Origin: a virus
Lineage: Duplodnaviria > Caudoviricetes
DNA length: 61,328 nt
Direction: 5' to 3' (one strand)
Virus record (IMG/VR): IMGVR_UViG_3300045972_000344
Location: 1-61,328 of that record
In this document: positions 10,279 through 40,159 of the stretch, one piece after another
How the letters are laid out: every line of letters starts with the position of its first letter
Numbering within the stretch: the stretch's first letter is position 1
Notes under the pieces: generated by a model
Seen by the model: only the letters and a program-made list of their open reading frames with translations
The model's database searches: none
Told to the model about the DNA's origin: nothing
Made by a program: the position numbers and the translations under genes

Positions 10279-10528
10279 AGGGCAGGGCCGGGATCTCCCC
10301 GATCCCGCCCTTCTCCTGCGCCTGGGCCATTGCCTCCATGTGCCAGGACCAGTGATCCATGGCGTCCGGGTGCTCCTCCAGGTGCTGCGCGCCGTAGCGG
10401 CTGTGCATGTGGTGGGCGCCGTCCTGCAGCAGCTTCCGGTAATCGTGTTCCGCCGCCTGGGTCTCCAGGTCGGTTTCGGCGAGCGCGCGGGCCAGCCCGT
10501 GGCGGGGATCGGCTTCGGGGGTCTTCAT
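10217..10528 (-). CDS. hypothetical protein
   Basis: ATGA-coupled end of the minus-strand operon. Confidence 0.55.
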   Translation of the reverse strand: MKTPEADPRHGLARALAETDLETQAAEHDYRKLLQDGAHHMHSRYGAQHLEEHPDAMDHWSWHMEAMAQAQEKGGIGEIPALPFTPALPAPAGQTSGNPPGTS

Positions 10529-10686
10529 TGGAGCCTCGCTTGGTCGAAGGTCATGGTGTCCACCGGGGCGAATTCATCCACGCGAGGGTGCTGGCACCCG
10601 GCCATGACGAGCCACCCGCACTCCGGGCAGGCGTAGCTGCCCCGCCTCAGATCGGTGTCTTCGGGGTGGTGCTGGCATTGGCTCAT
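10525..10686 (-). CDS. 53-aa Zn-finger microprotein (not in ORF track)
   Basis: MSQCQHH...YACPECGWLVMAGCQHP; ATGA overlaps at both ends. Confidence 0.6.
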   Translation of the reverse strand: MSQCQHHPEDTDLRRGSYACPECGWLVMAGCQHPRVDEFAPVDTMTFDQARLQ

Positions 10687-13600
10687 GCGGCATCCTCGGT
10701 CTGCTGTGCCTTCCGGGCCCGGAGCGCGCGGAGCGTCATCCCGATCCCGCTGTCGTCCAGGTATCCCTCTTTCGACTGGTAGATGCCAGCCAGAACCTGC
10801 TTTTTCTGCACCCGGGCCCGGGCGTTCCGGTCGTAGGCGTGGTCAGCCAGCAGGTTGGTCACCTCCACATCGGAGGTCTGGCCCAGGCGGTCGATGCGCG
10901 CCGTCCTCTGCTCGTGGGTCTTGTAGGTCATCGGCTGGTCGAAGTGGATTAGGTGCTTCCCGCGCTGAAGGTTGGCACCCGTGGCCGCCGCGTCCGAGGC
11001 GATCAGGATGTCCGCCGTGGGCTCCCGGCCCGGCCCGCCCTGGAAGGCTGCCAGCTTGCCCGGCTTCTCCCTGGAGGAGTCCTTGCCGCTGATGGACGCC
11101 ACCCGCAGGCCCGCGTCCTCCATGGCCTTGTGGAGCGCCTCGACCGCTTCCAGGCGGTGCGCGAAGAGGACCACGGGCTTGCCTTCGGCGATGCTCTCCC
11201 GGGCCATCTTCACGGCGGCTGCCATCTTGGCCCCGCCGATGTTGATTGCTCGGTCCATGGCCGCCTCTCGGAAGGTGCCGACCGCCTTGCGCACCCCCTC
11301 TGCGATGGCCGGGTATTCCTCCTCCGGCTTCCCGATGAAGGAGCGCGGGGCGAGTTCCTTGGCCCATTTCAGGGTGTCTTCCCCGAGGCGCAGCTTCCCG
11401 GCCGCCTTCTCGATGGTGGCGATCTGGGTCTGCTGGTCCGCGTCCAGGCCGATGGTCTCGTCATGGTGGTGGGCCACCTTCCCGCTGCCCACGCGCTCGG
11501 TGAAGAAGTAGCGCGACAGTTCGCCCTTGAGGCCCCGCCGCGAGATCGCCGAGTCGGATCCGTAGCGCCGCAGGAATTCGTCTCGCCCCTGCCTCGGGTA
11601 GCGCACGGGATCGATCTTGTGGAGCCAGTCGTATGCCTCGCTCGGGTCGTTCTTCACCGGGCTCCCGGTGGCTCCGATGTAGTGGCTGGCGTTGTGCCCG
11701 TGGGCATCGATGATCTTGGAGAGGAGGCTGTCCGGCTTCCCCTTCCGGTTCAGGGCGTCATGCCCCTCATCGATCATCAGGGCATCGAAGCTGGCCCCTT
11801 CCTTGGCGAACGCCGCCTTCAGGTTGTCCTTCAGATCCTCCGGGGTGGCGCCCATGGCCCACTTCGCGGCATCGTCCTCGCTGATCCCCCGGTGGGACGC
11901 CAGCAGCTTCACTGAATCGTCCCGGACGGCCGCGTGGGTCATCACCACGGCATGCTTCTCTGGGTCTCGGTAAGCCTGCAGGCGCTGTTCAAAGGATTCG
12001 CCCGGGACGGCATGCAGCTTGATCCCGGTGGTGGGGTCCAGGAAGTTCGCCGCCTCGGCTCCGAACTGCTCCTGAACGATGCTCGGCACGGCCATGAGGA
12101 TCTTTTTGCCCTGCCCACTGTGAACCAGCGAGGAGGCGGCGCCCATCATGATCCCCGTCTTCCCGCTCCCGGCCCCGTAGAACAGCCCCATCCGGTGCAG
12201 GCTGTTGAACGCCTTGATCCCCCGCTGCTGGGCCCGGAAGTCCCGCCCGGTCCCGGCATCGTATCCCATGTGCATGCCCTCCTGGACCTTGACGGGCTTC
12301 ATGCTCCGGCTCTGAAATGGGGCCGATGCGTTGGGCATAGCGGCCGACAGTTGGGCCTCGATCCGCGCGCCCAGGCGGTAACGCTCGCCCGGCGCCGCTT
12401 CCGGCTTCTCCCATTTCTGGGGCTCATCGCTCTCGGGAGCACCCGACAGTTCATCGGAGCCGAAGAGAGCGCCCCCCTGCCCGAAGAGCCCGGCTTCGTC
12501 CGCCTGCTCCATGCGCTCGCGGACATTGACCGACCGGAACTTCCCGGCGCCGCCGCGCTGCATCTTGGCCTGCTTCGACCGCCGCTCCGCTTCGAGTTCG
12601 GCCGCCTTCTCCGCCCCGGCAGTCGCCTTGAGGTGCGTGGAGTAGTGGGCGATGTCCCCCGTCCCCATCTGGAGCACCTTGCCCGTCAGCTTGGAATAGT
12701 GGCCGTGGAACTTCTCTGCGAGGCTGCTCTGCATCTCGCCCTGGATCGATTCGGTGGCCGCCTTGAGGCCGCCCATCTTCTCGATGTAGTCCGCCCAGGG
12801 GCTGTGGGAATCGATGGCCGCGAGGCGCCGCTCCAGCAGGGCCCGCTGCTCCCCGTGGGCCGCCGCGAAGGTGGACCCTTCCGCCGGGGCCGGGCCGAGG
12901 TCGTCAAGCTGCTGCTGCAGATCCTGGCGCTGGGCCTCCCCGGGGGAGTTCTTGCGGATGATGGCGTTCTTTTTCCGCTGGTATTCCTGATACTCCGGGC
13001 TCTCGGTGGGGCCCATGTCCTCGAAGAGGCTCATGCCCCCGGTGGTCTCATCGAACTGCTCAGGGGCCGGGCCCAGGGCCTGGAGTGCGTTCGCCAGATC
13101 CTCGCCCTTCTTCCCGTGGTGCTCCCGGTAGAACCAGTCCCGGATGGCGTGGCGCTGGATCGTGGTGAGTTCCCCGATTCCGGCATGCGCAGCCTGCAGG
13201 CGGGGGTCTTCGGCGATGGCCCGGTGCAGGGCCTCCCGGAAGTCCGGGTGATCTGGGTCCAGGGTCTGCCCTTCCAGGGTTCCGGTGTCCCCGCTGGAGT
13301 CCAGGAACTTCCGGCCGAGGGCATCGATGCTCGCCTGGATCTGCTTCGGCTCCCGCATCTTCGTCTTGTAGACCGTGTGCCCCGCGCTGTCCCGCACGAC
13401 CTGCCCGTTGTGCATCTCGGCCACGGGCTCGCCCTGCTCATCCCGGACCATCTCGTGGGTGGGGACCAGCTTGTTGATGGTCTCCTCCATCTCCCCGTGG
13501 AGGTGGGGGGGGATCATGTCCCGCAGGGTCACGCCCCGCAGGTCCGAGTTGATGTCCGTCCCACGGTGCCCGTCCGCCCACCGCTGGCCGATGTAGCGCG

Positions 13601-16013
13601 CGATGGCAGGCTCCAGGTGCTGGGAATCCGCCCCCTCTGGGAGTTCGACCTTCCGGTTGAAAACGGGCGGCTCCATGAGTTCGTTGTCGTAGCGGCTGGG
13701 CGTCCGCTTGGCGAAGCCTGGGGGGATGTATCCCTCCTCATCCATCTCGCCCCGCTTGATGCTGAGGGCCAGTTCCCGCTCCGCCACGGCCGCGTGGTCG
13801 ATGGGCTTGATCAGCTTGTCCTGCCCGGCGCCCGGAATGGTGAGGACCGCCTCGCCCCCCTCGTGGTCTAGCTGGTAATCGTTCGGCATGAGGCCCATGG
13901 CCGCCGCCGCCTGGATCGCCCGTTCCGGGGTGCTCCGGCCGAGCGGAACCTGCAGGTTCTCCGCCGGGGTGCTCTGCAGGGCCGCGATGAGGGCCGCCCG
14001 CGCCTCGAAGCGACCAAGGGCGCCGCCCAGCACCGACCGGGCCTGCTTGAGCGCCTCCACCCGCGTCTTGTGCATCTCCGCCGCCGCCGCGAAGTCCTTG
14101 GGGGTGCTGAGAAGCTGTTCCTTCATGGTCTGGGCTTCCGCCCGCAGGCCCTGGGCCTCCTGGGTCGCCTGGGGCAGATCGTTCTGCTGCTCCTGGAGGT
14201 GGTGCGTCTCCAGGGCCTCCAGGATCGTCTTCTGGTCCGCAGGCTCAAAGCGCGACCGGATGGCCCGGCTCAAGACCTGGGCCGCGCACTCGGGCCCCAG
14301 GGTCTCGACCGTGTCCCGGTCCAGGAGCCCGGCGCCGAAGACCGCCAGCCCTGCCTCGTGGAGCGCCGTCCAGGCCGCGCTGCCCCGGGAGGCCGCCATG
14401 CCCTCCTCCTCACTCCCGTCCCAGGCGCCCTGCAGGGTGCTGCTCTCCGGGTTGGCCTTCTCCACTTCGTCCAGGAACTGGCTCACATGGGAGCGAAGGA
14501 TCTGCTCGGTCAGGTCCGCGACAAGAGCCTCTTTATCCTCGGGAGAAGGCTCGGAGGCTGTCGCCAAGAACCCCGGTTGAAAAACGCGCCCGGTCTTGGC
14601 CGCGACTGCCTCCTCATACGCCTCCCGGAGCGCCGCCCGTGCCTTGAGCATGCCCCCGAGGTTCGCATTGTCTGCCAGCGCATCCTTGATGGCCGTGGCC
14701 GTGGCCTCCGCCCTGCGCTGCTGGAGTTCCTTCGTGGCGATGTGGGCCTGGACGGCTGCCTGGGTCTGCTCCTCATTCCGGGGTGCCCCGGGCTCGGCAG
14801 GGTTGACGCGCGGGGCCAGCCCCTGGGATTCCTTCCATGCGGCCGTGGCGCCGACCAGCTTCTCCGCCGTCAGGCCGTTGGCTTCGGCGCGCTCTCGGAT
14901 CGCCCGGTCGTATCCGGGGCCCTTGTCCTGCTGGGTAGAGAGGATCGTGTCGATGGCGAGGCCGGGGGTGAGGTCGCCCCCCACTTCGGCGAGCCCGGCC
15001 GCGACCCGCGTCTCGGCATCGAGGGTGATCTTCCGCTGGGCTTCCTTGCAGGCCGCGAACGCCTGCTTCAACCGCTCCCGGTGGTAGGCACGGGCGACCT
15101 TGGGGTCTGCATCGGGGGTGTTGCTGAAGAGGTCCGGGGCCTCGGCTGCCTGGGAATCGTCCCCCAGAACCTGCTTGATGAAGGCGTCCTCCGCCTTCTT
15201 CCGGTGTTCCTTGGCTTGGACCGACTGCTGCACATGGGCCTCGCGCTGCTCGGGGGTCATGGCCTTGAGGGCTTCCTTCTCCGCCTGCTGCTTGGCCGTC
15301 CGGCGCTCGGTCGACTCCTGCTTGTATTGCTCGGGGCTCTTGGTCAGGTTGATGCGGAGGAAGTTCAGCTTTCCCCCGGCTCCTCCCACCACCCGGTGAA
15401 GACCAGGATGGCCTTCCACGGGGCGAAGAAGAACCGCATTGCCCTTCGTCCCCGGCCCATTAGGATGCACGGTGATCCAGCGGTCCCCGCTCTGGGGCGG
15501 GGTGTCTGCCTTGGCGACTTCGAGAGGTTCCTTTTCAGGATCCACCGCTTCAGCTTTGATCCGTTTCCCCTCAAAGAACGCCTCCAGTCCCCCGTGCTCA
15601 TGGGGCTTGCCGTGGTGGTCATGGGCCGTCTCCGCCCAGGATTCGCCCTCGCTGATCCAGTCCTCCAGGCTCCCGTTCGGGATCTGGCGGATGCTGCTGA
15701 TCGGGTGCTGCCCGGCGGGGTAGTGCTTCATCAGGACTTCGGCCGCGTGAACCGGGCTGTCGAACCCGAGGAGCACCTTCTCCTCATCGTGCTCGCCGTC
15801 CGGGTGGGTTTGCCCGACCACGAAGACGCTGGGGCTGTCCTTGTGCGGGCCCACCCACGCCTTGACCTCCCGGCGCCCCTCGCCATCGAGCCCCTTGATG
15901 ATCCCCCGTCCGGCCTTCATGCGCGTCATCCAGCCGATGCCGTCCGGGCCCTTCCCCAGCTTGAAACCGCCGGGCTCGTGGGTCATCTGGATCGGGATTC
16001 CTGCGATGTCCAT
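10683..16013 (-). CDS. large polyvalent protein: degenerate InPase-like N-terminus plus C-terminal SWI2/SNF2 helicase
   Basis: GAGSGKT, IDEGH, ATGSP, ATGANLQ, QRTARIDRLGQ; RWITVHPNG segment; ATG 16013 has GGAGG (track start 16034). Confidence 0.85.
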   Translation of the reverse strand: MDIAGIPIQMTHEPGGFKLGKGPDGIGWMTRMKAGRGIIKGLDGEGRREVKAWVGPHKDSPSVFVVGQTHPDGEHDEEKVLLGFDSPVHAAEVLMKHYPAGQHPISSIRQIPNGSLEDWISEGESWAETAHDHHGKPHEHGGLEAFFEGKRIKAEAVDPEKEPLEVAKADTPPQSGDRWITVHPNGPGTKGNAVLLRPVEGHPGLHRVVGGAGGKLNFLRINLTKSPEQYKQESTERRTAKQQAEKEALKAMTPEQREAHVQQSVQAKEHRKKAEDAFIKQVLGDDSQAAEAPDLFSNTPDADPKVARAYHRERLKQAFAACKEAQRKITLDAETRVAAGLAEVGGDLTPGLAIDTILSTQQDKGPGYDRAIRERAEANGLTAEKLVGATAAWKESQGLAPRVNPAEPGAPRNEEQTQAAVQAHIATKELQQRRAEATATAIKDALADNANLGGMLKARAALREAYEEAVAAKTGRVFQPGFLATASEPSPEDKEALVADLTEQILRSHVSQFLDEVEKANPESSTLQGAWDGSEEEGMAASRGSAAWTALHEAGLAVFGAGLLDRDTVETLGPECAAQVLSRAIRSRFEPADQKTILEALETHHLQEQQNDLPQATQEAQGLRAEAQTMKEQLLSTPKDFAAAAEMHKTRVEALKQARSVLGGALGRFEARAALIAALQSTPAENLQVPLGRSTPERAIQAAAAMGLMPNDYQLDHEGGEAVLTIPGAGQDKLIKPIDHAAVAERELALSIKRGEMDEEGYIPPGFAKRTPSRYDNELMEPPVFNRKVELPEGADSQHLEPAIARYIGQRWADGHRGTDINSDLRGVTLRDMIPPHLHGEMEETINKLVPTHEMVRDEQGEPVAEMHNGQVVRDSAGHTVYKTKMREPKQIQASIDALGRKFLDSSGDTGTLEGQTLDPDHPDFREALHRAIAEDPRLQAAHAGIGELTTIQRHAIRDWFYREHHGKKGEDLANALQALGPAPEQFDETTGGMSLFEDMGPTESPEYQEYQRKKNAIIRKNSPGEAQRQDLQQQLDDLGPAPAEGSTFAAAHGEQRALLERRLAAIDSHSPWADYIEKMGGLKAATESIQGEMQSSLAEKFHGHYSKLTGKVLQMGTGDIAHYSTHLKATAGAEKAAELEAERRSKQAKMQRGGAGKFRSVNVRERMEQADEAGLFGQGGALFGSDELSGAPESDEPQKWEKPEAAPGERYRLGARIEAQLSAAMPNASAPFQSRSMKPVKVQEGMHMGYDAGTGRDFRAQQRGIKAFNSLHRMGLFYGAGSGKTGIMMGAASSLVHSGQGKKILMAVPSIVQEQFGAEAANFLDPTTGIKLHAVPGESFEQRLQAYRDPEKHAVVMTHAAVRDDSVKLLASHRGISEDDAAKWAMGATPEDLKDNLKAAFAKEGASFDALMIDEGHDALNRKGKPDSLLSKIIDAHGHNASHYIGATGSPVKNDPSEAYDWLHKIDPVRYPRQGRDEFLRRYGSDSAISRRGLKGELSRYFFTERVGSGKVAHHHDETIGLDADQQTQIATIEKAAGKLRLGEDTLKWAKELAPRSFIGKPEEEYPAIAEGVRKAVGTFREAAMDRAINIGGAKMAAAVKMARESIAEGKPVVLFAHRLEAVEALHKAMEDAGLRVASISGKDSSREKPGKLAAFQGGPGREPTADILIASDAAATGANLQRGKHLIHFDQPMTYKTHEQRTARIDRLGQTSDVEVTNLLADHAYDRNARARVQKKQVLAGIYQSKEGYLDDSGIGMTLRALRARKAQQTEDAA

Positions 16014-16089
16014 GCCGTCCTCCGTGCTCGACATTCTCCCATGACAAAGGCCCGGTTGCCCGGGCCTCGTGTCACTTCCGTGCGGGGGT

Positions 16090-16596
16090 CTACGCCTTGG
16101 GGACGGGGGTGCCCACGGTGAAGACCACCTGAGTCGCGGGCAGGGGCGCGGGCGCCACGGCGGACACCGCGAAGTCCTGGCTTCCGCTCACGACCGATCC
16201 GTCCGGGTTGGTCCCGTGGACGGTGAGGGCCGAGTTCCCGGCCGCCAGACCCTGGACCGTGATCTCCGCCGTTTCGGCAGGGACCGAGGAGTCGTAGGGG
16301 GCGGTGAAGGCCGCGCCGATGACGCTGGGGTCACCGGGGACGAGGGTGATGTTGGTCACCTTGGCCGGGGCGCCGTTGGCGTCCAGGAAGGCGATGGAGA
16401 CAGGCACCTGCTGGGTGCTGTCGAGGAGGGCGGGGCTGCTCATGGGGATGCTCCAAAAAAGGAAGGGGTGGCGGAAAGCTATTGTGACAGCGTTCCGGTG
16501 GTGGTGGTGACGGTGTAGAAGGTGCCAGATAATCTGGCGGAGCCTCCCGAGGATGATGTTCAGGACCGTGGCGAAGATGCGGAGGTGGCGCCTCAT
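16090..16596 (-). CDS. Ig-like beta-sandwich protein (start may be 16443)
   Basis: beta-rich C-terminal ~117 aa; ATG 16596 overlaps upstream stop; alternative ATG 16443 after GGAG. Confidence 0.55.
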   Translation of the reverse strand: MRRHLRIFATVLNIILGRLRQIIWHLLHRHHHHRNAVTIAFRHPFLFWSIPMSSPALLDSTQQVPVSIAFLDANGAPAKVTNITLVPGDPSVIGAAFTAPYDSSVPAETAEITVQGLAAGNSALTVHGTNPDGSVVSGSQDFAVSAVAPAPLPATQVVFTVGTPVPKA

Positions 16597-19500
16597 CCTT
16601 GAGCCTTGGCCCGGTGGTAGCTGGCTGCGGCGTGGTGGGCTTCCCAGGCTTTCTGGTGGCCCTCGTGCTTGTAGTCGGTGTCTTCGTTGGCCTGCTCGTG
16701 ACTCATCTCAGCGGCCATGTGGCTCATCTCGGCAGCGTGGTGGTCTTCCTTCGTCCCGGTCTGCTCTGCCTTGACGGACGCGGCGTGGGCGGTCTGGGAG
16801 TAGGGGAGCATCTGCTTCCCCGTCCTGCCCTTGGTGCCCTTGGCAGCGGCGAGCGCCCTGTCGTGGTGGGTCTCAGGCGGGGTGCGCGCCTGCATCGCGG
16901 CGACCTGCCCATCGTGGTAGGCGGCCTTCGTTTCGTGCTGCCCCCGGACCTCGCTGTCGTATTGGATCGCGGCGGCGTGGCGGTGAGCGGCTGCAGCCTC
17001 CTCGTGGACCTTGGCGCCTCCGGCCGGGGCGAGGGTGGTCCGGCTGGCCGACTCCGCCCGCTTGGCTCGGAGGTTGATTTCATCGTGCCCCTTCGCCATC
17101 TCGGCTCGGTGGTGCTCGATCTTGGTCCGGTGTGCATCGGCCTTCAGGAAGTGGTGGTCGGCAGGGTATTGGTTGGCATGCGCCGTGGTGCCCATCTTGG
17201 TCGCAGCCTCCCGCGCCTTCCCGTGGGCCTCGATGGCGAGGAGGTGCTTGGCGGCATGCTGATCGTGGGACTGGTAGTTGTCCTCCAGCTTGTGGGCATC
17301 GGCATGCTCGCTCAGGTGCCCGGCGATCTTGGTGGCGTGTTCATAGGTTCCCTGGTTCCCCGTGTTCTCTTTCGCGTGGTCGACCGACATTCCGAAGTGG
17401 CGGCTGGCCGCGTGGTAGTGCTCGCTGCCATTGCCCTCGGCATGCGCCTGGAGGTGAGCCTCCCCGGCCTTCTCGTGGAGCAGGGCGGCCTTGCCGTGGG
17501 CATCCTCGTATCCCGCCTCCCCGCGCGCATGGGCAGAAGTCTCGCGGCTGGCCTTGTCTGCAGCCCGGGTGTGGTCATCCGGGGTGGCGGCCGAAGCCTT
17601 CCCCTCCTGGTGGGCCTTGGTCTCGCGGTCTGCCATCTCCATGGCCTCCTCTCGGGTCTTCCCGTGGCCCAGGATGGCGCCGCCGGAGGAGACCGAGTGG
17701 ATGGGCTGGCCCGTGGAGTCCTCCCCCTCGGTGTGCCGCATCCCGTTCGGGAGTTCGGTCACGATGGGGGTCTTCTTCGCCCGGGCCGCCGGGGCGAGTT
17801 CGGCCGCCTTCTTCGCGTGGCTGGAGGCGTAGTGGCCGTGCAGGTTGGCTTGGTCCTCATGGCCCCGCTGCTGCCACGCCTCGGGGGCATGCTGGGCGGC
17901 GGTGCGGTGGGCCTCGGCTGCCTGCTTGTGCAGGTCAGCAGCAGCGGCATGCTCCTCGTGGCCCTTGCTGATCGAGTGGGATGTCGCCATGGTGGCGTTC
18001 TTGCTGATCGCGTTGGCCGCGTTCATGTGGGTGTCGTATCCCGAGACCTGGACCGTCTTCCCGCCCACCACCCGGGTGTGCTGCTCCACATGGGCCTTGG
18101 CGACCGTCTGCCCCTTGGGCCTGAATCGTTCGGCCACCTGGAAGTGCAGGTTCCTGGTTTCGGCGTGGCCCCGGGAGAATTCGACCGGGCCATTGTTGGC
18201 GAGGGTGTTGTGCATGTCTGAGGCTTTCCGGTGCGCCTCGTAGGCTGCCTGGATGTCCTCCTGCTTCCCCCCCCCGGATCGGACCTTCCCCGTCAGGACA
18301 TGGGCCGCGCTCGACTGGGCCTCGGCCGCCGCCTTCTGGGCCGGGTAGCTGGTAGCGCGCGCATTCCGCTCCGGCGCTGGGATCCGCAGGCGCCTGGACT
18401 CCGTGGCGTTCCCCTCGTGCGCGTCCGCGCGGCCGTCATGCTGAATGTGGGCCGCCGTGTGGTCGGTGTTCCGGTTGGCGGTCATGTCGTCAACCTGGGC
18501 CCTGGCGGCGGCCTTGTGCATCAGCGCGGCGTGTCGGTGGAGCCGGGCGGATTCGAGGTATTTCTTCTCGCTCCCGGGCCCGTATCCGACCTTGTCGTGA
18601 TCCACATCCCCGGCCCTGGCAGCCTCGCTGGCCCTGGTTGCGGAGGCGCGCTTGCTCTCGTAGGCGCTGACCTGGACGACCCGTCCGCCCTGGGTTCGGG
18701 TGTGAGCCGCGACCTCGGACTTCCCGAAATCCTGGCCCTCGACCCCGGGGGTGGCCGCATCCTTCAGGGCGCGAACCTCCTCCAGATGGGCAGTGGCCGC
18801 GTCCTCGTGGTGGCGGGCGATGGCGTGGTGGGCCTCGATGACCTCCGGCATGATGTCCATCCGGTTCGTGTGGTCCTTGGCCCGGTCCCGATGGGCGTTG
18901 GCTGCGGCGCGGTGGGCATTGAAGGCGCGGGCGTGGGAGAGGGGGGTGTTCTTTTCCCCTGCTCGGATCGTCTGGCTGTGGGCATGCTCGCTCGCCTGCC
19001 GGGCGGTTCCGTTCCCGTGCAGGTTCAGGCCGACCACCTTCTCCATCGCCATCGTGGCGTGGTCCCCGGCGTCCGGCTTCTCCATGCTCCGCTGGATCCG
19101 GGTGTGCTCATCGGCGAAGGAGTGATGACCCATGGCGGCCGTGGCGTGGTGCAGCCGGAGGGCATCGTCCGTGGATGCGGCGGCGGCGTGGTCGTGTTCC
19201 TGGGCAGCCTCCAGATGCATATGCGCGGCGTATGCATGCTGGTCGTTCTTTTCGACCCCCAGTTCCTCGTTCCCGTGGGCCTCCTCGGACGCAGCCAAGG
19301 CGTTGTCCGTGGCGGTGGCGGCCCGGGGATGGCTGCTCTGGTGGTTCATGACCTCGCCGTGATGGGTCCACATGCGGTTGAAATCGTAAGCCGCGACCTG
19401 GACGACCTTGCCGTTAACCGTTCGGGTGTGGCCCTCCACATGGGATTTCCCGATCTCCTCCTCATCGTCCTCATCCTTCTTCCGGTCCTTCTCATCCGGG

Positions 19501-20645: not shown

Positions 20646-20727
20646 CCCTGCCTCCGTATTCGGTGCCTCATTCTCCCACCTTCCCGAAAGATTGGCGGAT
20701 CTGGTATTTGGTCCTCACTCGAAATTA

Positions 20728-20759
20728 TGACTTGCGAAAAGTCAAGCGGGGGCTATACT
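20728..20759 (+). promoter_or_regulatory. sigma70-like promoter with overlapping palindrome
   Basis: TTGCGA(20732)-16 bp-TATACT(20754); TGACTT-N5-AAGTCA over the -35. Confidence 0.65.
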
Positions 20760-20784
20760 TCTAAGTGCAAAGGAGCCCCACCCC

Positions 20785-21897: not shown

Positions 21898-22085
21898 TCC
21901 TCGGCCTGCAGTTCTTCGGCGTGGAGGCATGTGGCCTTCGCCACCGCGAGCACCAGACAGTTGATCGCCTGCTCGGGCGTCCAAATTCCCACAGGGGGGT
22001 CAGCGATGGCCCCCTTGAGGTCGTTAACCGCGAGGACCACGCCCTGCTCTGCTTTGATCTTTTCGATGGCGGCTTGGGCGCTCAT
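21894..22085 (-). CDS. small hypothetical protein
   Basis: ATGA-coupled to the GNAT gene; 3' end overlaps the HDAC stop. Confidence 0.55.
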   Translation of the reverse strand: MSAQAAIEKIKAEQGVVLAVNDLKGAIADPPVGIWTPEQAINCLVLAVAKATCLHAEELQAED

Positions 22086-23617
22086 GCTGATCTCCGGGCT
22101 GCTTTGGCCTTCGTGTATTTAAGCATGCGTTGTAGGTGGCGGTCATCCCCCACCAGGAACCGACCACCGAAGTTCGTTCCAGGCATGAAGAACTGGCCGA
22201 GGGGATGGTCCGCGACCTCCCACTGGGCGTAGTTGTTCGTCTTCGCCACGAGGGCCTCGAATTCCCGGCGCTTGGTGGGGTTCGCCCAGATCGCCTTGGC
22301 CTCCTGCGCCTGCTGCAGCTTGTGGGCACTCGACCGCATCTTGGCTTGGTTCCCGGCGCTCGTGGCGGCCTGCAGTTCCCGCTGCCGCTTGACGATGTGC
22401 TGGTCGAAGTCGATCTGGGAATAGCGGGCCTGGATCTGGCTCTGCTGCGACCGCCAGCAGGAATTGTCCCTCGGCACGAACCCGTATCGGCTCCAGGCGA
22501 ACCCGCCCCCGCCGCAGGCCGCCGTCACATCGGCGTGGTGAAGGCCCCATGCCCGGTAGTAGTCCATCGAGTGGGCCAGGAACGCCTCGCTGTAACCCGA
22601 CCCCTGGACCGAATCGTCCGTGATCAGGTAGGCGTGGTAAACCGATTTTTCGGCCGGGTTGCTGAAATTGAAATTGCGCTGAAAGGTTCCGATCTTGCCG
22701 GGAAGGGCCGGGTCTCCGCCGAAGCTCAGGCTTGACGAACTCCCGTCAAATGCCAGCTTCAGCCCTGGCCCCCAAGGCACAAAGCAATCCTCGATCCACT
22801 GCCGAATGTCGCTCTTGCAGTGCAGATTCCAGCCGTTGATGAAGCCGTCCGTGAACCTGAAGGTCATCCCCCTGGCTGCGCACTCCCGGGTCACTGCATC
22901 GCAGATTGCCCTGCTGAGGGGTTCGGTCTGGGGGATCGGGTTCCCACCGAACATGCCGCCCGCGACTCGGACGGCGCCGAACAGCTTGGCGAATTCATCG
23001 TCAATGTCGGATTCAGAGGCTCCCGGGGTCTCCAGGCGCTGCCCGAAGATGCTGGCGAACTGGTCATCCGTCTCGGTCTCCGTGGGCCCGGTCGCAACCG
23101 GGGCACTTTGGGCCACGGCGGGGGCCACGGCGGGCGCGGGGGTGGCGAGTGGGACCACGGGCCGGGCAGGGGCCGTGCGCGCCCTGGTGGGCCTCACGGG
23201 CGCCGCTGCCATCGGGACGGTGTTCACGGTGGGAGGGGGTGCCTCCTGGCTGAACCCGCCATGGAAGGCCACGGCGTTCAGGAGGGCCCGGGCGTCCTGC
23301 GCGGTCTCGAAGTCCAGCACATCGTAGGCGCCTTGGCGGCCGTGGTGGTTCCCGCCTGCCCGGGTCCGGGTGTAGCGGATGCCGTGCCTGTCGGCGAGCC
23401 TCATCAGTTCTCGGGTGTCCGCCCCGTTGGTGGACCGGATCCGGGTGGGCCTCCCGTCCACGATGGTCGACCGCTCGTGAAGGTGGGCCTCCCGGCTGGT
23501 GGCCGCGATGGCGTGGTTCGCGTGGTAGTCGTGGACGAAGATCACCTTGCCGTTGACCACCCGGTAGTGGGCGTTCGTGTGGCGGTTCTCCTGGTGGGTG
23601 GCGGCGACAGCGGGCAT
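22082..23617 (-). CDS. multi-domain protein with C-terminal GNAT acetyltransferase
   Basis: VYHAYL...VQGSGYS (acetyl-CoA motif A)...GGFAWSRYGF; Pro/Ala linker; N-terminal domain shared with upstream gene. Confidence 0.72.
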   Translation of the reverse strand: MPAVAATHQENRHTNAHYRVVNGKVIFVHDYHANHAIAATSREAHLHERSTIVDGRPTRIRSTNGADTRELMRLADRHGIRYTRTRAGGNHHGRQGAYDVLDFETAQDARALLNAVAFHGGFSQEAPPPTVNTVPMAAAPVRPTRARTAPARPVVPLATPAPAVAPAVAQSAPVATGPTETETDDQFASIFGQRLETPGASESDIDDEFAKLFGAVRVAGGMFGGNPIPQTEPLSRAICDAVTRECAARGMTFRFTDGFINGWNLHCKSDIRQWIEDCFVPWGPGLKLAFDGSSSSLSFGGDPALPGKIGTFQRNFNFSNPAEKSVYHAYLITDDSVQGSGYSEAFLAHSMDYYRAWGLHHADVTAACGGGGFAWSRYGFVPRDNSCWRSQQSQIQARYSQIDFDQHIVKRQRELQAATSAGNQAKMRSSAHKLQQAQEAKAIWANPTKRREFEALVAKTNNYAQWEVADHPLGQFFMPGTNFGGRFLVGDDRHLQRMLKYTKAKAARRSA

Positions 23618-23620
23618 GGT

Positions 23621-26206
23621 CTACCTCCCCTGCAGCTTCGCGGCGAAGTCCCGGGCATGCTGGGCATGCTCCTCTGCCTTGCGGATCGCGGCCTTCCGCT
23701 CCTCACCCTTGGGCAGCGTCATGGCGTGGTGGTAGGTCGCCACCGCCGACTTCTTGTAGGCATCGAGTGCGGCCGTGATCTTGCCTCGGTCGGTGGTGCC
23801 CGTGGCGATGGCATGGGCCGTGGCCGCCGCCTGCTGGTGGGTCTCATGGGCCCGGGCAAAGCGGGGATCAGAGGTCTTCGGCCGGGATTCCAGGCGGGTG
23901 GCCTCCTTCGCGGCCTTGTCCGCAAGCTGGGCCAGCTTGTCCACCACGGGCTTCGTGGCCGATGCCCAGATCCCAGTGGGGTGCGCCATCACGGGGAGGG
24001 CTGCGTCCCGGGCCTGCCGGACGGCTTGGGCCATGGTGGTGGCGGCTGCCCGGGCGTCATCGGCCTCGGGGTGCTGCGCCAGCACTTCCGTGGTGGCTGT
24101 GTGGATCGTGTTCAGGTGCGCGAGGGCCCCCGCGAAGCGGATGGCGGCGGTCTTCTGCTCCCCGGTCATCCCGCCGTTGAGGGTCTCGCTGTTGATCGCC
24201 TGGATCTGGGTGGATACGGCCGTCTGGGGATTCTGTTCGGTGGTGGCGAACCGCTCCAGCTTGGCTCCGAAATCCAGGGCCGCGATCTGGCTGTCGATCC
24301 CGGTCTTGGCCTCGGTCAGCTTGGCCTCGGTCATCCCGGCGGGAAGCGCGGCGCCCGTGGGGCGCATGTCGATCATGTCCTTGGCATCGTTGGCCGCCTT
24401 CTTGGCCGCCTCGAATCCGCGACCGCTGCTGAGGGTGCTGGTGATCGCGGCCGGGTTCAGGCTGGTCATCGCGTTCCGCCACTGGTTCGCGGCGGTGGTC
24501 TTCCAGGCGGTCAGGCGCTCCTGGTGCCACCGAGGGCCCTTGCCCTGCTGGTCTGGGATGGCTCCACGGGTCGCCAGATCCAGGCCGATGGCATGGGTTC
24601 GGATGGCCTCCATGGAGTTCTGCAGGGCCTGCTTCGTGTGCTGGCTATCGGTGCCCCGGGCCCGGTCGCCAGCCGCGAAGGCAGCGTCCCGAGCGGTCTG
24701 GTATTGCGAGGCCGTGACGCCGGATCCGGCCGGTGGCCCGGTGACGGGCGCAGGACGGGGGGCCCCGGAAGGGCCAGCACCCGCGCCAGGGGCTGCCGGG
24801 CGGACGGGGATGGGGACGGAGGTTCCCTGGGGCGGAACAATCGCAGCGGCGGCAGCCTGGGCAGGCTGGTTCAGGCTCGGGTGCAGGTAATTGTCCATGG
24901 CCGTGTAGCGCAGGCGTGGCGAGGCGCTGTCCTCCCGGCCGACATACCCGCCCCGGACCTTCTCCGCCTTGATCTGGGTCACCAGGGCGTTCGCGGCGGC
25001 CTGGGACATGGGGGTGACCGTCTTGGTTCGGACGACCAGCGAGCGGCTGTCGATGCTCCCGTTCCCGGCGTTGACGACCCACTTCCCCTCCCCCACTTGG
25101 CGGAGGTCGATGATGTAGTGCTTGTTGTGCGTCCCGCTCGTGTTCTCCAGGACCACCCGGCGGTCAAGCTGCCCCGCGATGTGGTTGGTGAAGAAGCGGC
25201 GATCCTGGCTGAAACTCTGGGCGGCAGCGGCCAGGGCGGCGGAAGGAGACGGGGCCTGGGCGGCGGCGGCATTCGCCACGGCGGCATTGTTCGTCCGGGT
25301 GGCGGTCGCCATCCTCTGCAGCGCAGCCTGGACGGCTCCGGCGCCCCGGGTGGCGGTGTGGACGGTGTGCTCGTGGGCTCGGTCGCCGTGGCGGAGCCGC
25401 ACCGCGTCCATGACGGCGTGGGCCTCGGCAGTGCTGGCGAAGATCATGGTCGGGTATGCGCTTTGACGCCCGTGGTGGTTCGCCCCACTGGGCCGGGTCG
25501 CCACCGGGTTGACCCCCAGGCTGTGCGCGGCCGAGAGGACGAGGTCGCGGTCGTCCGAGTCGGTGGCCCGGATGAATGCCTGCCCGGACTGGTTCACTCC
25601 CACCACTGTCCGCTGGTGCATGGTGGCGCTCGGGTGCTCCCCGTTCACCGTCCGGTCGTAGTTCGGGATGTAGACGATTTTGCCGTTCACGATCCGGTAA
25701 TGCGCCTTCACATGCGCCGTCTCGGACTTCAGAACCGCCTCGTCCTGCAGATTCCCTTCCTCGATCCAGCGGCCGAGTTCGTCAATCGGGACGGTGATGA
25801 CCGAGCCCATCACATCGTCCGGGTTGTCGCTTCTCCCCGCCCTGAACGCGTGGATGGCCGCCTCCCGGCTGGGGTAACCGATGAAGACCTTGTGCTCATC
25901 GAATTCGCCCGTGGGCCCCTTCTGGTTGATGATGTGGGCCTCGGTGCCGCTGCCCATGAGGGGCCCGACCGCGCAGTCCAGGTGATCCCCGTCCGCGCCC
26001 TCGGTGCCCTTGATGTATCCGTAGTGGTAGGGCATCGTCACTTCCCACGGATCGCCCTTGTGGTTCACGCCGCTCCGCTTCGTGCCCGCCAGATTCTCGA
26101 TGGCGATGTCCATGCCGTGCAGGCGCCAGTGGGTCTTCGCGTAGTTCCCGGCTCGCTTCTGCGCCTCGGTCGGCGCATCGGGTGCGATGGGCGTGGCGGT
26201 CGTCAT
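23621..26206 (-). CDS. polyvalent protein: InPase + shared domain + WGR-like domain + helical tail
   Basis: AGNYAK...YGYIKGTEGADGDHLD...FDEHK; NKHYII...KAEKVRGGY; ATG 26206 after GGAGG. Confidence 0.8.
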   Translation of the reverse strand: MTTATPIAPDAPTEAQKRAGNYAKTHWRLHGMDIAIENLAGTKRSGVNHKGDPWEVTMPYHYGYIKGTEGADGDHLDCAVGPLMGSGTEAHIINQKGPTGEFDEHKVFIGYPSREAAIHAFRAGRSDNPDDVMGSVITVPIDELGRWIEEGNLQDEAVLKSETAHVKAHYRIVNGKIVYIPNYDRTVNGEHPSATMHQRTVVGVNQSGQAFIRATDSDDRDLVLSAAHSLGVNPVATRPSGANHHGRQSAYPTMIFASTAEAHAVMDAVRLRHGDRAHEHTVHTATRGAGAVQAALQRMATATRTNNAAVANAAAAQAPSPSAALAAAAQSFSQDRRFFTNHIAGQLDRRVVLENTSGTHNKHYIIDLRQVGEGKWVVNAGNGSIDSRSLVVRTKTVTPMSQAAANALVTQIKAEKVRGGYVGREDSASPRLRYTAMDNYLHPSLNQPAQAAAAAIVPPQGTSVPIPVRPAAPGAGAGPSGAPRPAPVTGPPAGSGVTASQYQTARDAAFAAGDRARGTDSQHTKQALQNSMEAIRTHAIGLDLATRGAIPDQQGKGPRWHQERLTAWKTTAANQWRNAMTSLNPAAITSTLSSGRGFEAAKKAANDAKDMIDMRPTGAALPAGMTEAKLTEAKTGIDSQIAALDFGAKLERFATTEQNPQTAVSTQIQAINSETLNGGMTGEQKTAAIRFAGALAHLNTIHTATTEVLAQHPEADDARAAATTMAQAVRQARDAALPVMAHPTGIWASATKPVVDKLAQLADKAAKEATRLESRPKTSDPRFARAHETHQQAAATAHAIATGTTDRGKITAALDAYKKSAVATYHHAMTLPKGEERKAAIRKAEEHAQHARDFAAKLQGR

Positions 26207-26324
26207 GGTGCCTCCGGGTTGGAGAATTTTCGCATATCCCGACAGCGCGCGGGTGAATCTGGAGTGAGGCACGGTCCCGCAACTGTTGGTTTTTCCTCAG
26301 AGTGCGGGTGGCATACTTCCCCCC

Positions 26325-27332
26325 ATGGACACTGGCGCTCTCCAAAACGCAGCCGCGCTCATCGCAGGGATGGGGCTCATGGCCTCCCCCGCCGAGATGC
26401 CGATGCTGACCCTCGATTGCGGAACCCAGTTCTGCAAGGCGACCCCTGCCATCGAGGGCGGTCACCGGGTGCTCTACATGGAGGCTTCGTCCGAGGCCCG
26501 CGATGTCCAGAACGAGCGGATCCTTGCGGCGGCGCTGGAGGACTCGAAGGACTATTTCCTGAAATACGGCCGGATCGACCTGGATCACGCCACCGTCTGG
26601 CAGATGATCCGCGAGACCAAGCTGGACCCGTCCAACCCCTACGCCCGGGAAATCGGCCGCCCCCTCGATGTCCGCGTGACCCGGAAGCCCGGCGATGTTC
26701 CCCGCGTCTGGGTGAAGTGCGCCATCTTCAAATCCTCCGACCCCTCCAACCAGTTCGCCCGCGCGGCTAATTGGTTCTGGGACACCCTGCAGGTCACCCC
26801 TCCCGCGATCTGGTATCCCTCGGTCGCAGGCTCGCTCCTCCCGGGTGGCCGCGAGGATGGCCCTGACGGTTCCCGCACCATCAAGAAGCTGCGGTGGCAC
26901 TCCATCGGCCTGTCCCGGAACCCGGTCAACACCGACCTGTCCCCCGCCTCGACCGTCCCCCTGGATGTCTTCGCCAAGGCCATGCGTCCCGGTAACGACC
27001 TCTCGGCTGCCCTGAACGCGCTCTCCCAGTTCTCTGCCCCTGCTCCGGCGGACGCGGATGCTGCCCTGCGGCATGCCGGGATCCAGCTTCCCCCCGTGGA
27101 CGGCGGTTCCATCCCTGCTGGCCTCGTGCTCACTGAAGAGCGCGGCGCCGTCATCCGGCGGGCCATCCTGGAAGCCCAGCCCCCCTACGCCATGACCGAC
27201 TGGCTCGCCAAGGTCGCGTCCATGGGAATCACGCCCGCCGAGGGCATGGCTTACCTCCTCGCCCTCCTCGGTGATGGACGGCGGTTTGCCATGACTCTCG
27301 ATCCCGCAGACAATAAGATCCAACCCCTGTAA
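26325..27332 (+). CDS. prohead protease
   Basis: EASSEARDVQNE...YFLKYGRIDLDH...PSVAG...IGLSRNPVN; first gene of head operon. Confidence 0.75.
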   Translation: MDTGALQNAAALIAGMGLMASPAEMPMLTLDCGTQFCKATPAIEGGHRVLYMEASSEARDVQNERILAAALEDSKDYFLKYGRIDLDHATVWQMIRETKLDPSNPYAREIGRPLDVRVTRKPGDVPRVWVKCAIFKSSDPSNQFARAANWFWDTLQVTPPAIWYPSVAGSLLPGGREDGPDGSRTIKKLRWHSIGLSRNPVNTDLSPASTVPLDVFAKAMRPGNDLSAALNALSQFSAPAPADADAALRHAGIQLPPVDGGSIPAGLVLTEERGAVIRRAILEAQPPYAMTDWLAKVASMGITPAEGMAYLLALLGDGRRFAMTLDPADNKIQPL

Positions 27333-27344
27333 AGGAGACCTCCC

Positions 27345-28202
27345 GTGAGCGCACTCTCGTTGCTTGAACTGGCCCAGCAGATGCTCAGTGGTTCCGTGGT
27401 CGCCAAGGCGGACGCGGCTCCCGCTCCTGGCGCCGAAGACCCCGACTCCATCCCGGGCAAGGATCAGCGCGCCGAGGGTGGCGCCCCCACCGAGGAGGCT
27501 CTGAACGCGGCCCGCACCGAGGCCCAGGCCGGGCAGCAGGCCCAGGGTGGCCCCGAAGGTGGCCCCGAAGGTGGCCCCGAAGGCGGCGCTCCTGGCGCTC
27601 CCGGCGAAGGCGGCGAGGGCGGAGAAGGAGGCGATGGCGGTTCAGGTGGCCCCGAGCCCGATGGGGACGAGGGCGGCGAGCCTGCCCCCCAGGTCACCAA
27701 GGCCGAGATCCTGGATTCCATCAAGTTCCTGGCCGACTTCCACGGATTGACGGGCGGCGAGGTCGCCAAGGCTTTCGCTGGCATGGAAGGCAACCCGAAC
27801 TGGGACGATGCCCCCGTGGGCGATGGGGTCGAAATGCTCCAGAAAATCGTGGAAGGCCAGCAGAACCAGAACAAGATTCTGGACGCCATCGCGGCGTTCC
27901 TGGCCGACCTGTCCAAGAACACCGTCAACCTCAAGACCGAGATCACGAAGTCCCTGGATGCCGCTGAGGCCGCCAAGGTCACGGCCAAGGAAGCCCTCGA
28001 CAGCATCTCGACCGCCATGCGCTCTGCTCCTGCCGCTCTCCCGAAGGCTGAGGTCATCGTGGCGAAGGCCCTGGGTCAGCAGGGCGGCGAGCGCACCCTC
28101 ACCTCCCAGGATCTGTTCAAGATCGCCCTGGAAGGCAAGATGAGCCCCACCGAGATCGCCTCGGCGAACCGCTCCCTCAACTACCAAACCACCGGGCGCT
28201 AA
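27345..28202 (+). CDS. capsid scaffold-like protein
   Basis: acidic Gly/Pro region, coiled coil, many xxK[AS] sites; between protease and capsid genes. Confidence 0.7.
   Translation: MSALSLLELAQQMLSGSVVAKADAAPAPGAEDPDSIPGKDQRAEGGAPTEEALNAARTEAQAGQQAQGGPEGGPEGGPEGGAPGAPGEGGEGGEGGDGGSGGPEPDGDEGGEPAPQVTKAEILDSIKFLADFHGLTGGEVAKAFAGMEGNPNWDDAPVGDGVEMLQKIVEGQQNQNKILDAIAAFLADLSKNTVNLKTEITKSLDAAEAAKVTAKEALDSISTAMRSAPAALPKAEVIVAKALGQQGGERTLTSQDLFKIALEGKMSPTEIASANRSLNYQTTGR
27546..27581 (+). repeat. tandem repeat (GGTGGCCCCGAA)x3 encoding GGPE
   Basis: three exact 12-mers. Confidence 0.9.
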
Positions 28203-28256
28203 CGCCCTCGTTCAAACCCCGTCCCGGCCCAGCCGGGCACATGAGGAGAAAGCGCC

Positions 28257-29744
28257 ATGAATGTTGGCCCCCTCGACATCCTCTCCGCCCTGGGTGACTC
28301 CGGGGCCTCCCCCGCTCTGGCCGAAATCACCAAGGCTTTGACCAGCATGGGTGCGGGCACGGACCTCGCCGCACTCACTGGCGGTGGTTCGTTCCGCGTG
28401 GAAAACATGGACCCCGTTCTCGCTTCCGCCACGGTGAAGCAGGAGCACTTCAAGTTCTTCAAGCGGCTGCTGCCCAACCGCCGCGAGTCCTGGTCGATCC
28501 TTGATCAGGCGGTCGTGAAGACCGGCATCGGCGCCTTCGCTGGCTCCGCGAACTCCAACGAACTCGGCAGCGGCCAGATCGAGCGGCAGGGTGACTACAC
28601 CCGCCTCATCACGGAACTCGGGACTTACTTCTCCCGGCGCTCCGCCTCGATCATCACCAGCATCCAGGCCACCCTGCAGAACAAGCAGGGCATCGTGGAT
28701 TTCAGCGCGATTGACGAGGAAGATGTCAACGCCGCCCTGGAAATCCTCTACTCCCTGGAGGCCGACCTGTTCCTGGGCGACAAGACCCAGAACCCCTTCG
28801 CCACCACCGGCCTGATCCCCTCGATCATCGCCAAGGCCCCCGCGAATGTGGTGGACATGAACGGCGAGCCCCTCGCCAGCCATGACCCCATCAGCCTCCT
28901 GGCGAACCGCATCACGGACGAAGGAAACTGGGGCAAGCCCAGCGTGGCCTTCATGTCCGGTCTCGTGAAGGCGGACCTGGATGCCTACCTGGAAGCCGGA
29001 TACCGCGTCAACCTCGACAGCGGCATCCCCTCCACCCAGATCGGCGTCCTCACTCGCGGCATGCATTACAGCAGCGTGGCCGCCGCCGATGGCGTGATCG
29101 ACTTCGATCCCAGCGCCTTCCTCAACGAGACCAAGATGCCCGTGGAGGCCACGAACTCGGCCTACTGCACCGCGGGCGCCCCGGTCTCCGTCACGAACAC
29201 CGTGCAGGGCTCTGCGAACCCCTCGGCCTTCTGGCTGGACAAGGCCGCTGGCACCTACCAGTGGACCGTGGGCGGCGCCTACACCTACCGGGTGGAAGCC
29301 TGCACCCCGGGTGAAGTTTCCCTGACCACGCTGTCCAACAGCGCCACCATGATCGCGGGCCGCGCCTTCGATCTGGTGATCACCGCCTCGGCCAGCAACA
29401 AGGAAACCCACTACAAGATCTACCGCAGCCGCAAGGCTGGCACGACCAACGCGAACGACTACCGTCTGGTGGCCATCGTGAAGAAGGCTGGCGCGACCAC
29501 GAACTGGACGGATCTGAATGCCTACATGCCGGGCACCAGCTACTGCGCCATCGTCTCCCCCGATCCCGCCAGCCTGCGCTGGGTCCAGATGCTCCCGATG
29601 ACCAAGATCCCCTTCGCGCTGAATGACCTCAGCTACAAGTGGGGTGCGTTCTTGGTCGGCGCCCTCCGGGTCGCCCTCCCCAAGCATCACGGGGTCATCA
29701 AGAACATCATCCCGAAGGGCGCGACCTGGAAGGCTTACACCTAA
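28257..29744 (+). CDS. major capsid protein with inserted Ig/FnIII-like domain
   Basis: KAL...GTDLAALTGGGSFRVE N-arm, LFLGD, YTYRVEA...YKIYRS insert, QMLPMTKIP; strong codon bias; terminator follows. Confidence 0.88.
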   Translation: MNVGPLDILSALGDSGASPALAEITKALTSMGAGTDLAALTGGGSFRVENMDPVLASATVKQEHFKFFKRLLPNRRESWSILDQAVVKTGIGAFAGSANSNELGSGQIERQGDYTRLITELGTYFSRRSASIITSIQATLQNKQGIVDFSAIDEEDVNAALEILYSLEADLFLGDKTQNPFATTGLIPSIIAKAPANVVDMNGEPLASHDPISLLANRITDEGNWGKPSVAFMSGLVKADLDAYLEAGYRVNLDSGIPSTQIGVLTRGMHYSSVAAADGVIDFDPSAFLNETKMPVEATNSAYCTAGAPVSVTNTVQGSANPSAFWLDKAAGTYQWTVGGAYTYRVEACTPGEVSLTTLSNSATMIAGRAFDLVITASASNKETHYKIYRSRKAGTTNANDYRLVAIVKKAGATTNWTDLNAYMPGTSYCAIVSPDPASLRWVQMLPMTKIPFALNDLSYKWGAFLVGALRVALPKHHGVIKNIIPKGATWKAYT

Positions 29745-39802: not shown

Positions 39803-39826
39803 GGGTGATCTCCGGCTGGTTCCATT

Positions 39827-40150: not shown

Positions 40151-40159
40151 GGCTCAACC

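Follow-up and report, generated by a model that had tools for sequence, protein, structure and literature searches.

A recurring hairpin module next to candidate lysine sites in polyvalent proteins encoded beside the head genes of a phage

The window analysed here is a whole virus record of 61,328 bp (IMGVR_UViG_3300045972_000344; G+C ~67%). Genes on its minus strand that abut the genes for a prohead protease, a scaffold and the major capsid protein carry a short repeated sequence, here called the tag, in which a candidate Lys processing site is joined to a predicted basic β-hairpin. The repeated tag had been noticed before and is confirmed. As far as sequence comparison goes, it is a real, conserved module, for which we found no printed description and which is related to known capsid-targeting and head-processing systems. 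The original prediction had gone further and read the tag as part of a system that addresses cargo proteins to the capsid; this interpretation is partly supported.

The tag is a composite module of ~30 residues. Its first part is a linker site, hydrophobic-x-Lys followed by Ala, Ser or Gly; its second part is a basic two-stranded β-hairpin with the consensus V-x-x-H-[TY]-R-x3-4-G-[KR]-x-V-x-V-x-x-Y. The core pattern H.R.{3,4}G[KR].[VI].[VI]..Y has exactly six matches in all six frames of the genome, at the six predicted places and in three minus-strand genes (Table 1). A profile built from 18 tags gives these copies 46-58 bits; nothing else in the six frames scores above 9 bits. The proposed prefix, K[SAG]x(1-2)VxxH, fits the four copies in the 1350-aa protein but not the copy that follows the InPase domain of the 883-aa protein, where the Lys-Ser sits three residues farther upstream. 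As predicted, the 511-aa protein, described then as a GNAT protein, has its tag near the native N-terminus and lacks the Lys-Ser prefix. Each of the five internal tags is preceded, 6-9 residues before its His, by a hydrophobic-x-Lys-small site, with the candidate Lys at K80, K400, K642 and K850 of the 1350-aa protein and K182 of the InPase protein. By chance, a position in the two proteins concerned has a site so near with a probability of 0.15 and 0.09. Eight tag-bearing queries gave no Pfam family that covers the tag at E<=10.

The module is by no means confined to this phage. A search of 1.84 billion proteins with a 31-column profile returned 145 representative proteins at E<=0.001, of which 19 reach E<=1e-10. 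Re-scoring of the 141 new representatives gave 201 copies in 140 proteins and a longer consensus: two or three hydrophobics, K, A/S, H/Y, V, K/E, x, H, T/Y, R, a turn of 3-4 residues, G, K, V, V, x, V, x, x, Y/H, often followed by D-K-R-x-K. K-[ASG] stands in register in 156 of the 201 copies, a count that is biased because the profile itself contained the Lys-Ala/Ser columns, and P3 is hydrophobic in 153 of these 156. In 60 of 140 proteins the first copy begins no more than 30 residues from the N-terminus; among the 97 with at least 300 residues this holds for 36. With a degenerate DNA pattern that leaves out the prefix, stretches were picked up in viral contigs (10), metagenomes (59) and genomes (38). 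The closest counterpart of our locus, L001, has a capsid protein 82% identical, the same gene order and five tags.

Fifteen of the 141 new matches, picked for size and N-terminal tags, were scanned against Pfam. Nine had matches, and all nine are polyvalent in type; the other six had no Pfam family. The domains in these scanned proteins comprise InPase, RadC, ART-PolyVal, Zeta_toxin, Topoisom_I, ParB, LPD1, S-AdoMet lyase, methyltransferases, DUF3560, SNF2, GNAT and WGR, and the tag-bearing proteins other than our own hold 2-6 Pfam families each. In none of the scanned proteins does a tag overlap a domain; tags precede domains or separate them. N-termini or domain boundaries are thus marked by the tag in many unrelated architectures, in line with the original interpretation.

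Is the tag linked to a particular capsid? The capsid family of the window was found in 7 of 11 other tag-bearing records (G001, G002, G004, G006, G009, G010 and G011). For comparison, tblastn with this capsid protein matches 60 of 50,697 isolated-phage records. The capsid-positive records include phages of low G+C content, and their tagged proteins share no domain with those of this genome. G001 has its tagged genes at a distance of ~2-7 kb from the capsid gene, divergent from it, and in G002 a tagged open reading frame (ORF) starts at the capsid gene. Cargo genes beside head genes, the neighbourhood to virion genes that is typical of polyvalent proteins, are a layout of this genome as well as of L001, G001 and G002. 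Altogether, the sequence records support the view that the tag travels with this capsid family.

The second line of evidence comes from the Lys site in the head proteins. The original prediction had staked its case on an enrichment of the site in head over non-head proteins. This enrichment is seen: Lys-Ala/Ser is over-represented in head proteins, and tail and replication proteins show no such excess. There are 14 occurrences of the pattern [VILMF].K[AS] in scaffold, capsid and protease together (2.5 expected, p<=0.001), 16 in the four cargo proteins of 1783, 1350, 883 and 511 residues (9.6 expected, p=0.035) and 19 in all other ORFs (17.5 expected, p=0.38). The looser hydrophobic-x-K[ASG], which had been proposed as a general boundary marker, is likewise enriched in scaffold, capsid and protease (15 vs 6.4 expected, p<=0.001) and weakly in the cargo proteins (38 vs 27.8, p=0.036), but it is common by chance in all other ORFs (48 vs 42.8 expected) and alone is too common to be useful. 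The individual sites that had been named are all present: ITK-AL in the capsid protein, six sites in the scaffold, FCK-A and FAK-A in the protease, as the candidate self-cut sites QFCK-A and VFAK-A, and VAK-AD in the SNF2 protein.

Sites of this kind recur in all relatives of the capsid family that were examined. The capsid protein belongs to phrog_752 (E=8.7e-52), together with SPO1 gp6.1 (PDB 9vel, E=7e-14) and the capsid proteins of Bordetella phage PHB04, Pseudomonas phage Dolphis and Thermus phages. The protease matches phrog_1028 with E=1.9e-6 over only ~45 residues and has no sequence match in the PDB; by eye it aligns clearly with the proteases annotated in PHB04 and Dolphis, and it is syntenic with them. 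Scaffold and protease carry 6 (0.6 expected) and 6 (1.0 expected) sites in Dolphis, 4 (0.8) and 4 (0.6) in the Thermus phage Cumys, and 11 (1.0) and 5 (0.7) in SPO1L1; capsid proteins taken as a whole show no enrichment. Seven such sites were read by eye from the printed sequence of the PHB04 scaffold. The L001 scaffold is 59% identical to that of this genome and retains each of the latter's six sites. Residues K26, A27 and L28 of the capsid propeptide are invariant among seven capsid proteins of 25-82% identity, each of which has one site ~15-18 residues ahead of a conserved TGGG motif. In tagged proteins, hydrophobic-x-K-A-E follows the InPase domain with a distance to the hairpin that varies, in some cases in two copies (P0029, P0113, P0136, P0160, P0161), which fits a cut site in a linker; part of a fold would not behave in this way. 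Taken together, cleavage after Lys appears well supported by comparison. Cleavage after Lys in SPO1/A511 capsids, which the original prediction had taken as established, found no usable confirmation in a literature search, and a paper on Felix O1 was set aside as it deals with another capsid type.

Two observations on related head proteins may be added. In Cumys (L015) the C-terminal part of the protease (10191-11156) is a near word-for-word copy of the propeptide region of the capsid gene (11845-13335), with the shared stretch …AKA…TAGDPHALD.K.GL.GVPAIR.ESLE…; this suggests that the Cumys protease may mimic the capsid N-terminus for its own incorporation. Among the PDB chains matched by the capsid protein of this phage, 9row has 439 residues and the related 5lii 463, and going by these chain lengths only, the gap of ~24 residues might reflect the mature N-terminus.

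What kind of proteins carry the tag? Sequence features support the view that the minus-strand genes from 10683 to 26272 encode polyvalent, DarB-like proteins of the kind predicted as virion cargo. Among the PHROG families that they match are 'minor head protein', 'virion structural protein' and 'DarB-like antirestriction'. The InPase domain (PF18823) scores 137.2 bits in the 883-aa and 79.5 bits in the 1783-aa protein (curated cut-off 26.8 bits). Two or more unrelated domains in one polypeptide, as in polyvalent proteins, are seen in the 1783-aa protein (InPase, residues 8-127; the candidate site LEVAK-AD; SNF2-type helicase, residues ~1266-1748) and in the 883-aa protein, which combines InPase with a β-rich domain that is WGR in homologues. 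The 883-aa protein (861 aa if Met22 is the start) continues from InPase (residues 36-171) through the AVLK-S linker, the tag, a domain with the motif NHHGRQ and the β-rich domain into a long helical C-terminal part. Tag and NHHGRQ domain form a paralogous stretch that is common to the 883-aa and 511-aa proteins: the domain, of ~90 residues, directly follows the tag (25340-25650 and 23250-23520, both minus strand), contains an invariant NHHGR-x-(G/S)-AY and has no Pfam match. AlphaFold models it as β-β-α-β-β-α with a predicted local distance difference test score (pLDDT) of 70-87, followed by the β-rich domain and a confident helical C-terminal half. A Foldseek search of the PDB with the 861-aa model gave only non-specific helical-repeat matches, none at E<=0.001, and one small tagged protein had no usable match in the ESM Atlas. 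As to the 511-aa protein, the tag is kept in seven of eight family members, the eighth being truncated at the N-terminus. Its C-terminal half has no Pfam match to GNAT at E<=10; the nearest ESM Atlas cluster (0.95), in which 20% of the members have Acetyltransf_1, is a weak pointer to such a domain. None of the four cargo proteins contains a zincin metallopeptidase domain in a Pfam scan.

The 1350-aa protein is composed of 20% Ala and 10% His. In a model of its first 700 residues, long helical bundles (pLDDT ~90) are connected by disordered linkers that hold tags 2 and 3. All four modelled tags are predicted as two short strands, two of them within disordered linkers. The first 80 residues contain three further candidate Lys sites, and the conserved N-terminal part of 85 residues could be a removable loading signal. 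The SNF2 protein has no hairpin tag by profile scan; the stretch that follows its LEVAK-AD site (residues ~175-215, RWITVHPNGPGTKGNAVLL) may form another sort of small hairpin, one that the tag profile does not match.

How might these parts work together? In the reading that we favour, the polyvalent proteins would enter the procapsid built by the products of the adjacent protease, scaffold and capsid genes. There, a Lys-specific prohead protease would cut after Lys in the scaffold, in the capsid propeptide, at its own ends and in the linkers of the cargo, and each released cargo unit would then start with the hairpin. The hairpin would be a constant handle that couples very different effectors to this capsid lineage, and it might keep a unit attached to the inside of the capsid or to the packaged DNA until it is ejected, or take part in the exit. 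Since the tag is present on every unit, a role after cutting is suggested, and initial loading as its only role is less likely. We infer packaging, cleavage, the partner of the hairpin and ejection, and consider the chances of this reading of protease-cut cargo with a hairpin handle to be about even.

Several observations weigh against it. Modelled hairpins have a pLDDT of ~30-60 only. The capsid family was not found in G003, G005, G007 and G008, a result from a single query protein that includes three partial records of 45-81% estimated completeness. In the sample drawn with the DNA pattern, which comprises 91 distinct contexts, some of them by chance, K-[ASG] is in register in 21 (three of which look like wrong frames), nearby in five and lacking in 65. 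Neither the 32-residue tag nor the tagged protein P0055 found anything by tblastn in the 50,697 isolated-phage records, and a hidden Markov model (HMM) scan of six isolate loci (PBC5, LE1, PHB04, Dolphis, Cumys and SPO1L1) revealed no tag. Site enrichment in the cargo proteins is modest. Tag and site also come apart within this genome, the 511-aa protein having the tag without the site and the SNF2 protein the site without the tag. In Bacteroidales genomes many proteins of 45-95 residues end in the hairpin, and its presence in these and in apparently secreted tandem-repeat proteins makes it a general fold. Finally, the Lys-Ala in K-A-H-V-K-x-H-T-R, if read as an amphipathic strand, could be structural rather than a cut site; native N-terminal tags often retain it after a leader of just 2-8 residues, and in the phage contig L046 (2095-5041, minus strand) three consecutive genes beside a terminase gene each start with a variant tag that has Leu-Ser/Thr in place of Lys-Ala/Ser. 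Two of these three have a second, internal copy; head genes are absent from this 9.9-kb contig.

From the last points follows an alternative in which nothing is cut at all: Lys-Ala/Ser would simply be part of the long amphipathic β-strand of a spacer hairpin, and its likeness to the scaffold sites a coincidence of composition. The repeated K-A-H-V / K-x-H-T pattern, the register shared by most profile-found copies, the very short native leaders, the Leu of L046 and the occurrence of the hairpin outside phages would all be in line with it. This explanation has to contend with a register that is not truly fixed, the site of the InPase proteins lying three or more residues farther upstream at variable distance and sometimes doubled, and with the hydrophobic P3, which resembles the scaffold and capsid sites. 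Two sites of this phage lie in predicted disordered linkers, and the 511-aa family has its native N-terminal tag without Lys-Ala, which is therefore not required by the fold. We regard a purely structural motif as improbable.

The close vicinity of hairpin and site could also mean that the hairpin is an exosite for the prohead protease, or another processing enzyme, that steers the cut to the adjacent site and has no later role. It stands immediately beside the site in five out of five internal copies and co-occurs with this protease and capsid lineage; a docking function of this sort would nevertheless leave the sites in scaffold, capsid and protease, which have no hairpin, the 511-aa family, which retains the hairpin without the site, and the many tags that are C-terminal or stand alone to be explained otherwise, and is the least probable of the alternatives.

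More serious is the charge of the tag, on average +4.4 per 29 residues where the same proteins as a whole have +0.8. The hairpin may be a small basic nucleic-acid binder that keeps the released unit on the packaged DNA, leaves with it and acts on it in the new cell, with no address to the capsid. Alignments show a conserved basic face K/H/K/H/R, many free-standing members are tiny and very basic, and WGR, ParB and topoisomerase domains, which act on DNA, are found in tagged proteins; a tag on every unit would again point to a role after cleavage. Such a DNA tether is at odds with the copies of the 1350-aa protein, which are weakly basic and lie in acidic linkers, and with some relatives, repeat proteins that appear from their signal peptides to be secreted. 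Pfam has no DNA-binding family that fits the tag at E<=10, and a general DNA binder would leave the tie to one capsid family unexplained. On balance we take it to be rather unlikely, though less so than the two preceding explanations. A predicted complex of capsid, scaffold and tag scored 0.00, which gives no support and is evidence neither way.

Returning to the handle on protease-cut cargo, a stronger form of this proposal may be put forward tentatively, as possible and yet well short of an even chance. The module would be a portable cut-and-keep-handle cassette specific to SPO1-type capsids, and any effector domain that follows it would enter the capsid, be set free by the prohead protease as a unit of its own and be retained singly until ejection. 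If true, this would account for the free shuffling of dozens of effector domains and provide a ready-made tag for loading chosen proteins into SPO1-type capsids.

The search for isolated phages with the tag gave several false leads. The 19-kb region (megablast) and the 1350-aa protein (tblastn) had no match among isolated phages. P0045 matched 467 phage records, which were rejected as tagged relatives because only the InPase domain matched; PBC5 and LE1, in which the match seemed to extend into a tag, were discarded when the HMM found none.

Some further occurrences of the hairpin are recorded here. ORFs of 45-95 residues with a very basic C-terminal hairpin are present in L020, L025, L030, L039, L078, L079, L095, L096, L109 and others (Bacteroidales metagenome-assembled genomes, MAGs, and rumen or gut metagenomes); two families are visible among the small Bacteroidales ORFs, and one MAG has at least two copies. 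Two or three tandem copies of a related unit, VKGYTR..KSGK.V.VKGYTRK, make up the small proteins P0084, P0086, P0087, P0107, P0115, P0116, P0133, P0165 and P0171, and at least P0084 seems by eye to have a signal peptide. In L056 (59-925, plus strand) a native N-terminal tag precedes the remainder of a 288-aa protein, which looks sigma-70-like, again by eye only.

The layout of the region is given in Table 1. Real genes were told apart by the G+C content of third codon positions. The tag genes all run on the minus strand; they abut the plus-strand genes for protease, scaffold and capsid and diverge from them. The baseplate and tail-sheath genes downstream of the head genes identify a contractile-tailed phage. 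A plus-strand ORF of 1316 aa (22820-26770) was rejected as a gene; its product is Gly/Arg/Pro-rich nonsense, an artefact of the wrong frame. Whether the histone-deacetylase-family gene belongs to the tag system is uncertain; together with the neighbouring GNAT-like half it may form an acetylation/deacetylation pair aimed at host or phage proteins. Elsewhere in the genome, ~2.1 kb (39802-41946) have no confident ORF, and their G+C content dips to 0.56, compared with 0.64-0.69 in the rest.

Table 1 Genes and tag copies of the region, in positions of the 61,328-bp window
Feature	Position	Strand	Description
1783-aa gene	10683-16034	minus	polyvalent protein, InPase and SNF2-type helicase
168-aa gene	between the 1783-aa and 1350-aa genes	minus	
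1350-aa gene	16593-20645	minus	Ala/His-rich helical protein with four tags
Tag 4 (1350-aa protein)	core 18036-18080, with prefix to 18098	minus	TVAK-A prefix; His 856
Tag 3 (1350-aa protein)	core 18660-18704, with prefix to 18722	minus	DFGK-S prefix; His 648; predicted hairpin E650-652/E655-657; predicted disordered linker
Tag 2 (1350-aa protein)	core 19386-19430, with prefix to 19448	minus	EEIGK-S prefix; His 406; predicted hairpin E408-410/E413-415; predicted disordered linker
Tag 1 (1350-aa protein)	core 20343-20390, with prefix to 20408	minus	EEIAK-G prefix; His 86; predicted hairpin E87-89/E95-97
Histone-deacetylase-family gene	20785-21897	plus	Hist_deacetyl, E=9e-32; between tag genes, itself without tag
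511-aa gene	22082-23617	minus	N-terminal tag, NHHGRQ domain, Ala/Pro linker, GNAT-like C-terminal domain
Tag of 511-aa protein	23525-23569	minus	about residues 14-31 (preceding His at 14); native N-terminus; no Lys-Ala/Ser prefix
883-aa gene	23621-26272	minus	InPase, linker, tag, NHHGRQ domain, β-rich domain, helical C-terminal part
Tag of InPase (883-aa) protein	core 25658-25702, to 25735 with upstream Lys-Ser (Lys182)	minus	AVLK-S prefix; hairpin predicted with low confidence
Prohead protease homologue	26286-27332	plus	candidate self-cut sites near both ends
Scaffold-like acidic protein	27345-28202	plus	six hydrophobic-x-K-A/S sites
Major capsid protein	28257-29744	plus	phrog_752; propeptide site AEITK-AL

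The choice of head cargo and the processing and delivery of polyvalent proteins are known experimentally for a few model phages (T4, P1 and phiKZ-like phages), in which we know of no sequence signal shared across many cargo proteins; nor do we know of a shared hairpin in the ejection proteins of phiKZ and SPN3US. T4 cuts after Glu. Here, at least 145 protein clusters, whose enzymatic domains are unrelated, have one short module in common, which is apparently tied to a single capsid lineage. Were it a processing-and-handle signal, it would provide a rule to predict cargo and mature ends from sequence alone, and it might also serve to load proteins into capsids; a hairpin that does no more than bind DNA would still be a widespread small fold of which we found no description. 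The literature searched does not describe the module; supplements, including that of Iyer et al., lie outside that search and might bear on this.

The polyvalent proteins of Iyer et al. 2017 (PMC5512222) are among the known systems closest to the one described here. InPase was defined in that study, whose relevant passages predict that polyvalent phage proteins are packaged in the head and injected, and propose their processing by built-in zincin metallopeptidases. Like those proteins, the tagged ones combine InPase, SNF2, RadC, ART, Zeta, ParB and LPD1 domains in single polypeptides, and the genes lie beside virion genes. They differ in that the four proteins described here have no zincin, and the LPD domains of that paper are in Pfam, which yet has no match to the tag; the paper's passages on hairpin, motif, linker and processing do not mention the module.

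The nearest parallel is the P1 Dar system, in which darB, which faces prt-pro, encodes a very large polyvalent antirestriction-type protein divergent from the head genes. According to the part of PMC9024508 on P1, the first ~30 residues of DarB suffice for capsid targeting, the capsid protein is cut after Glu120 and no consensus is reported across the Dar proteins' N-termini. In contrast to this cut after Glu, the candidate residue here is Lys, and a single module is common to many proteins, inside which it also recurs; DarB gave no hit to the tag profile in hmmsearch, even at E<=1000. In phiKZ and SPN3US the prohead protease processes many ejection proteins within the head, as stated in the relevant part of PMC10052503, but protease, site motif and capsid family are different from those described here.

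T4 IPIII, in which a capsid targeting sequence is removed by gp21 (PMC9024508, in its section on T4), offers a further comparison. In both cases packaged proteins, injected in T4, would have a short N-terminal signal together with a prohead-protease site. In T4, however, the signal lies upstream of the cut and is removed, whereas in all five internal copies here the candidate site is upstream of the hairpin, which would stay on the protein as its new N-terminus, and the module is also internal and repeated.

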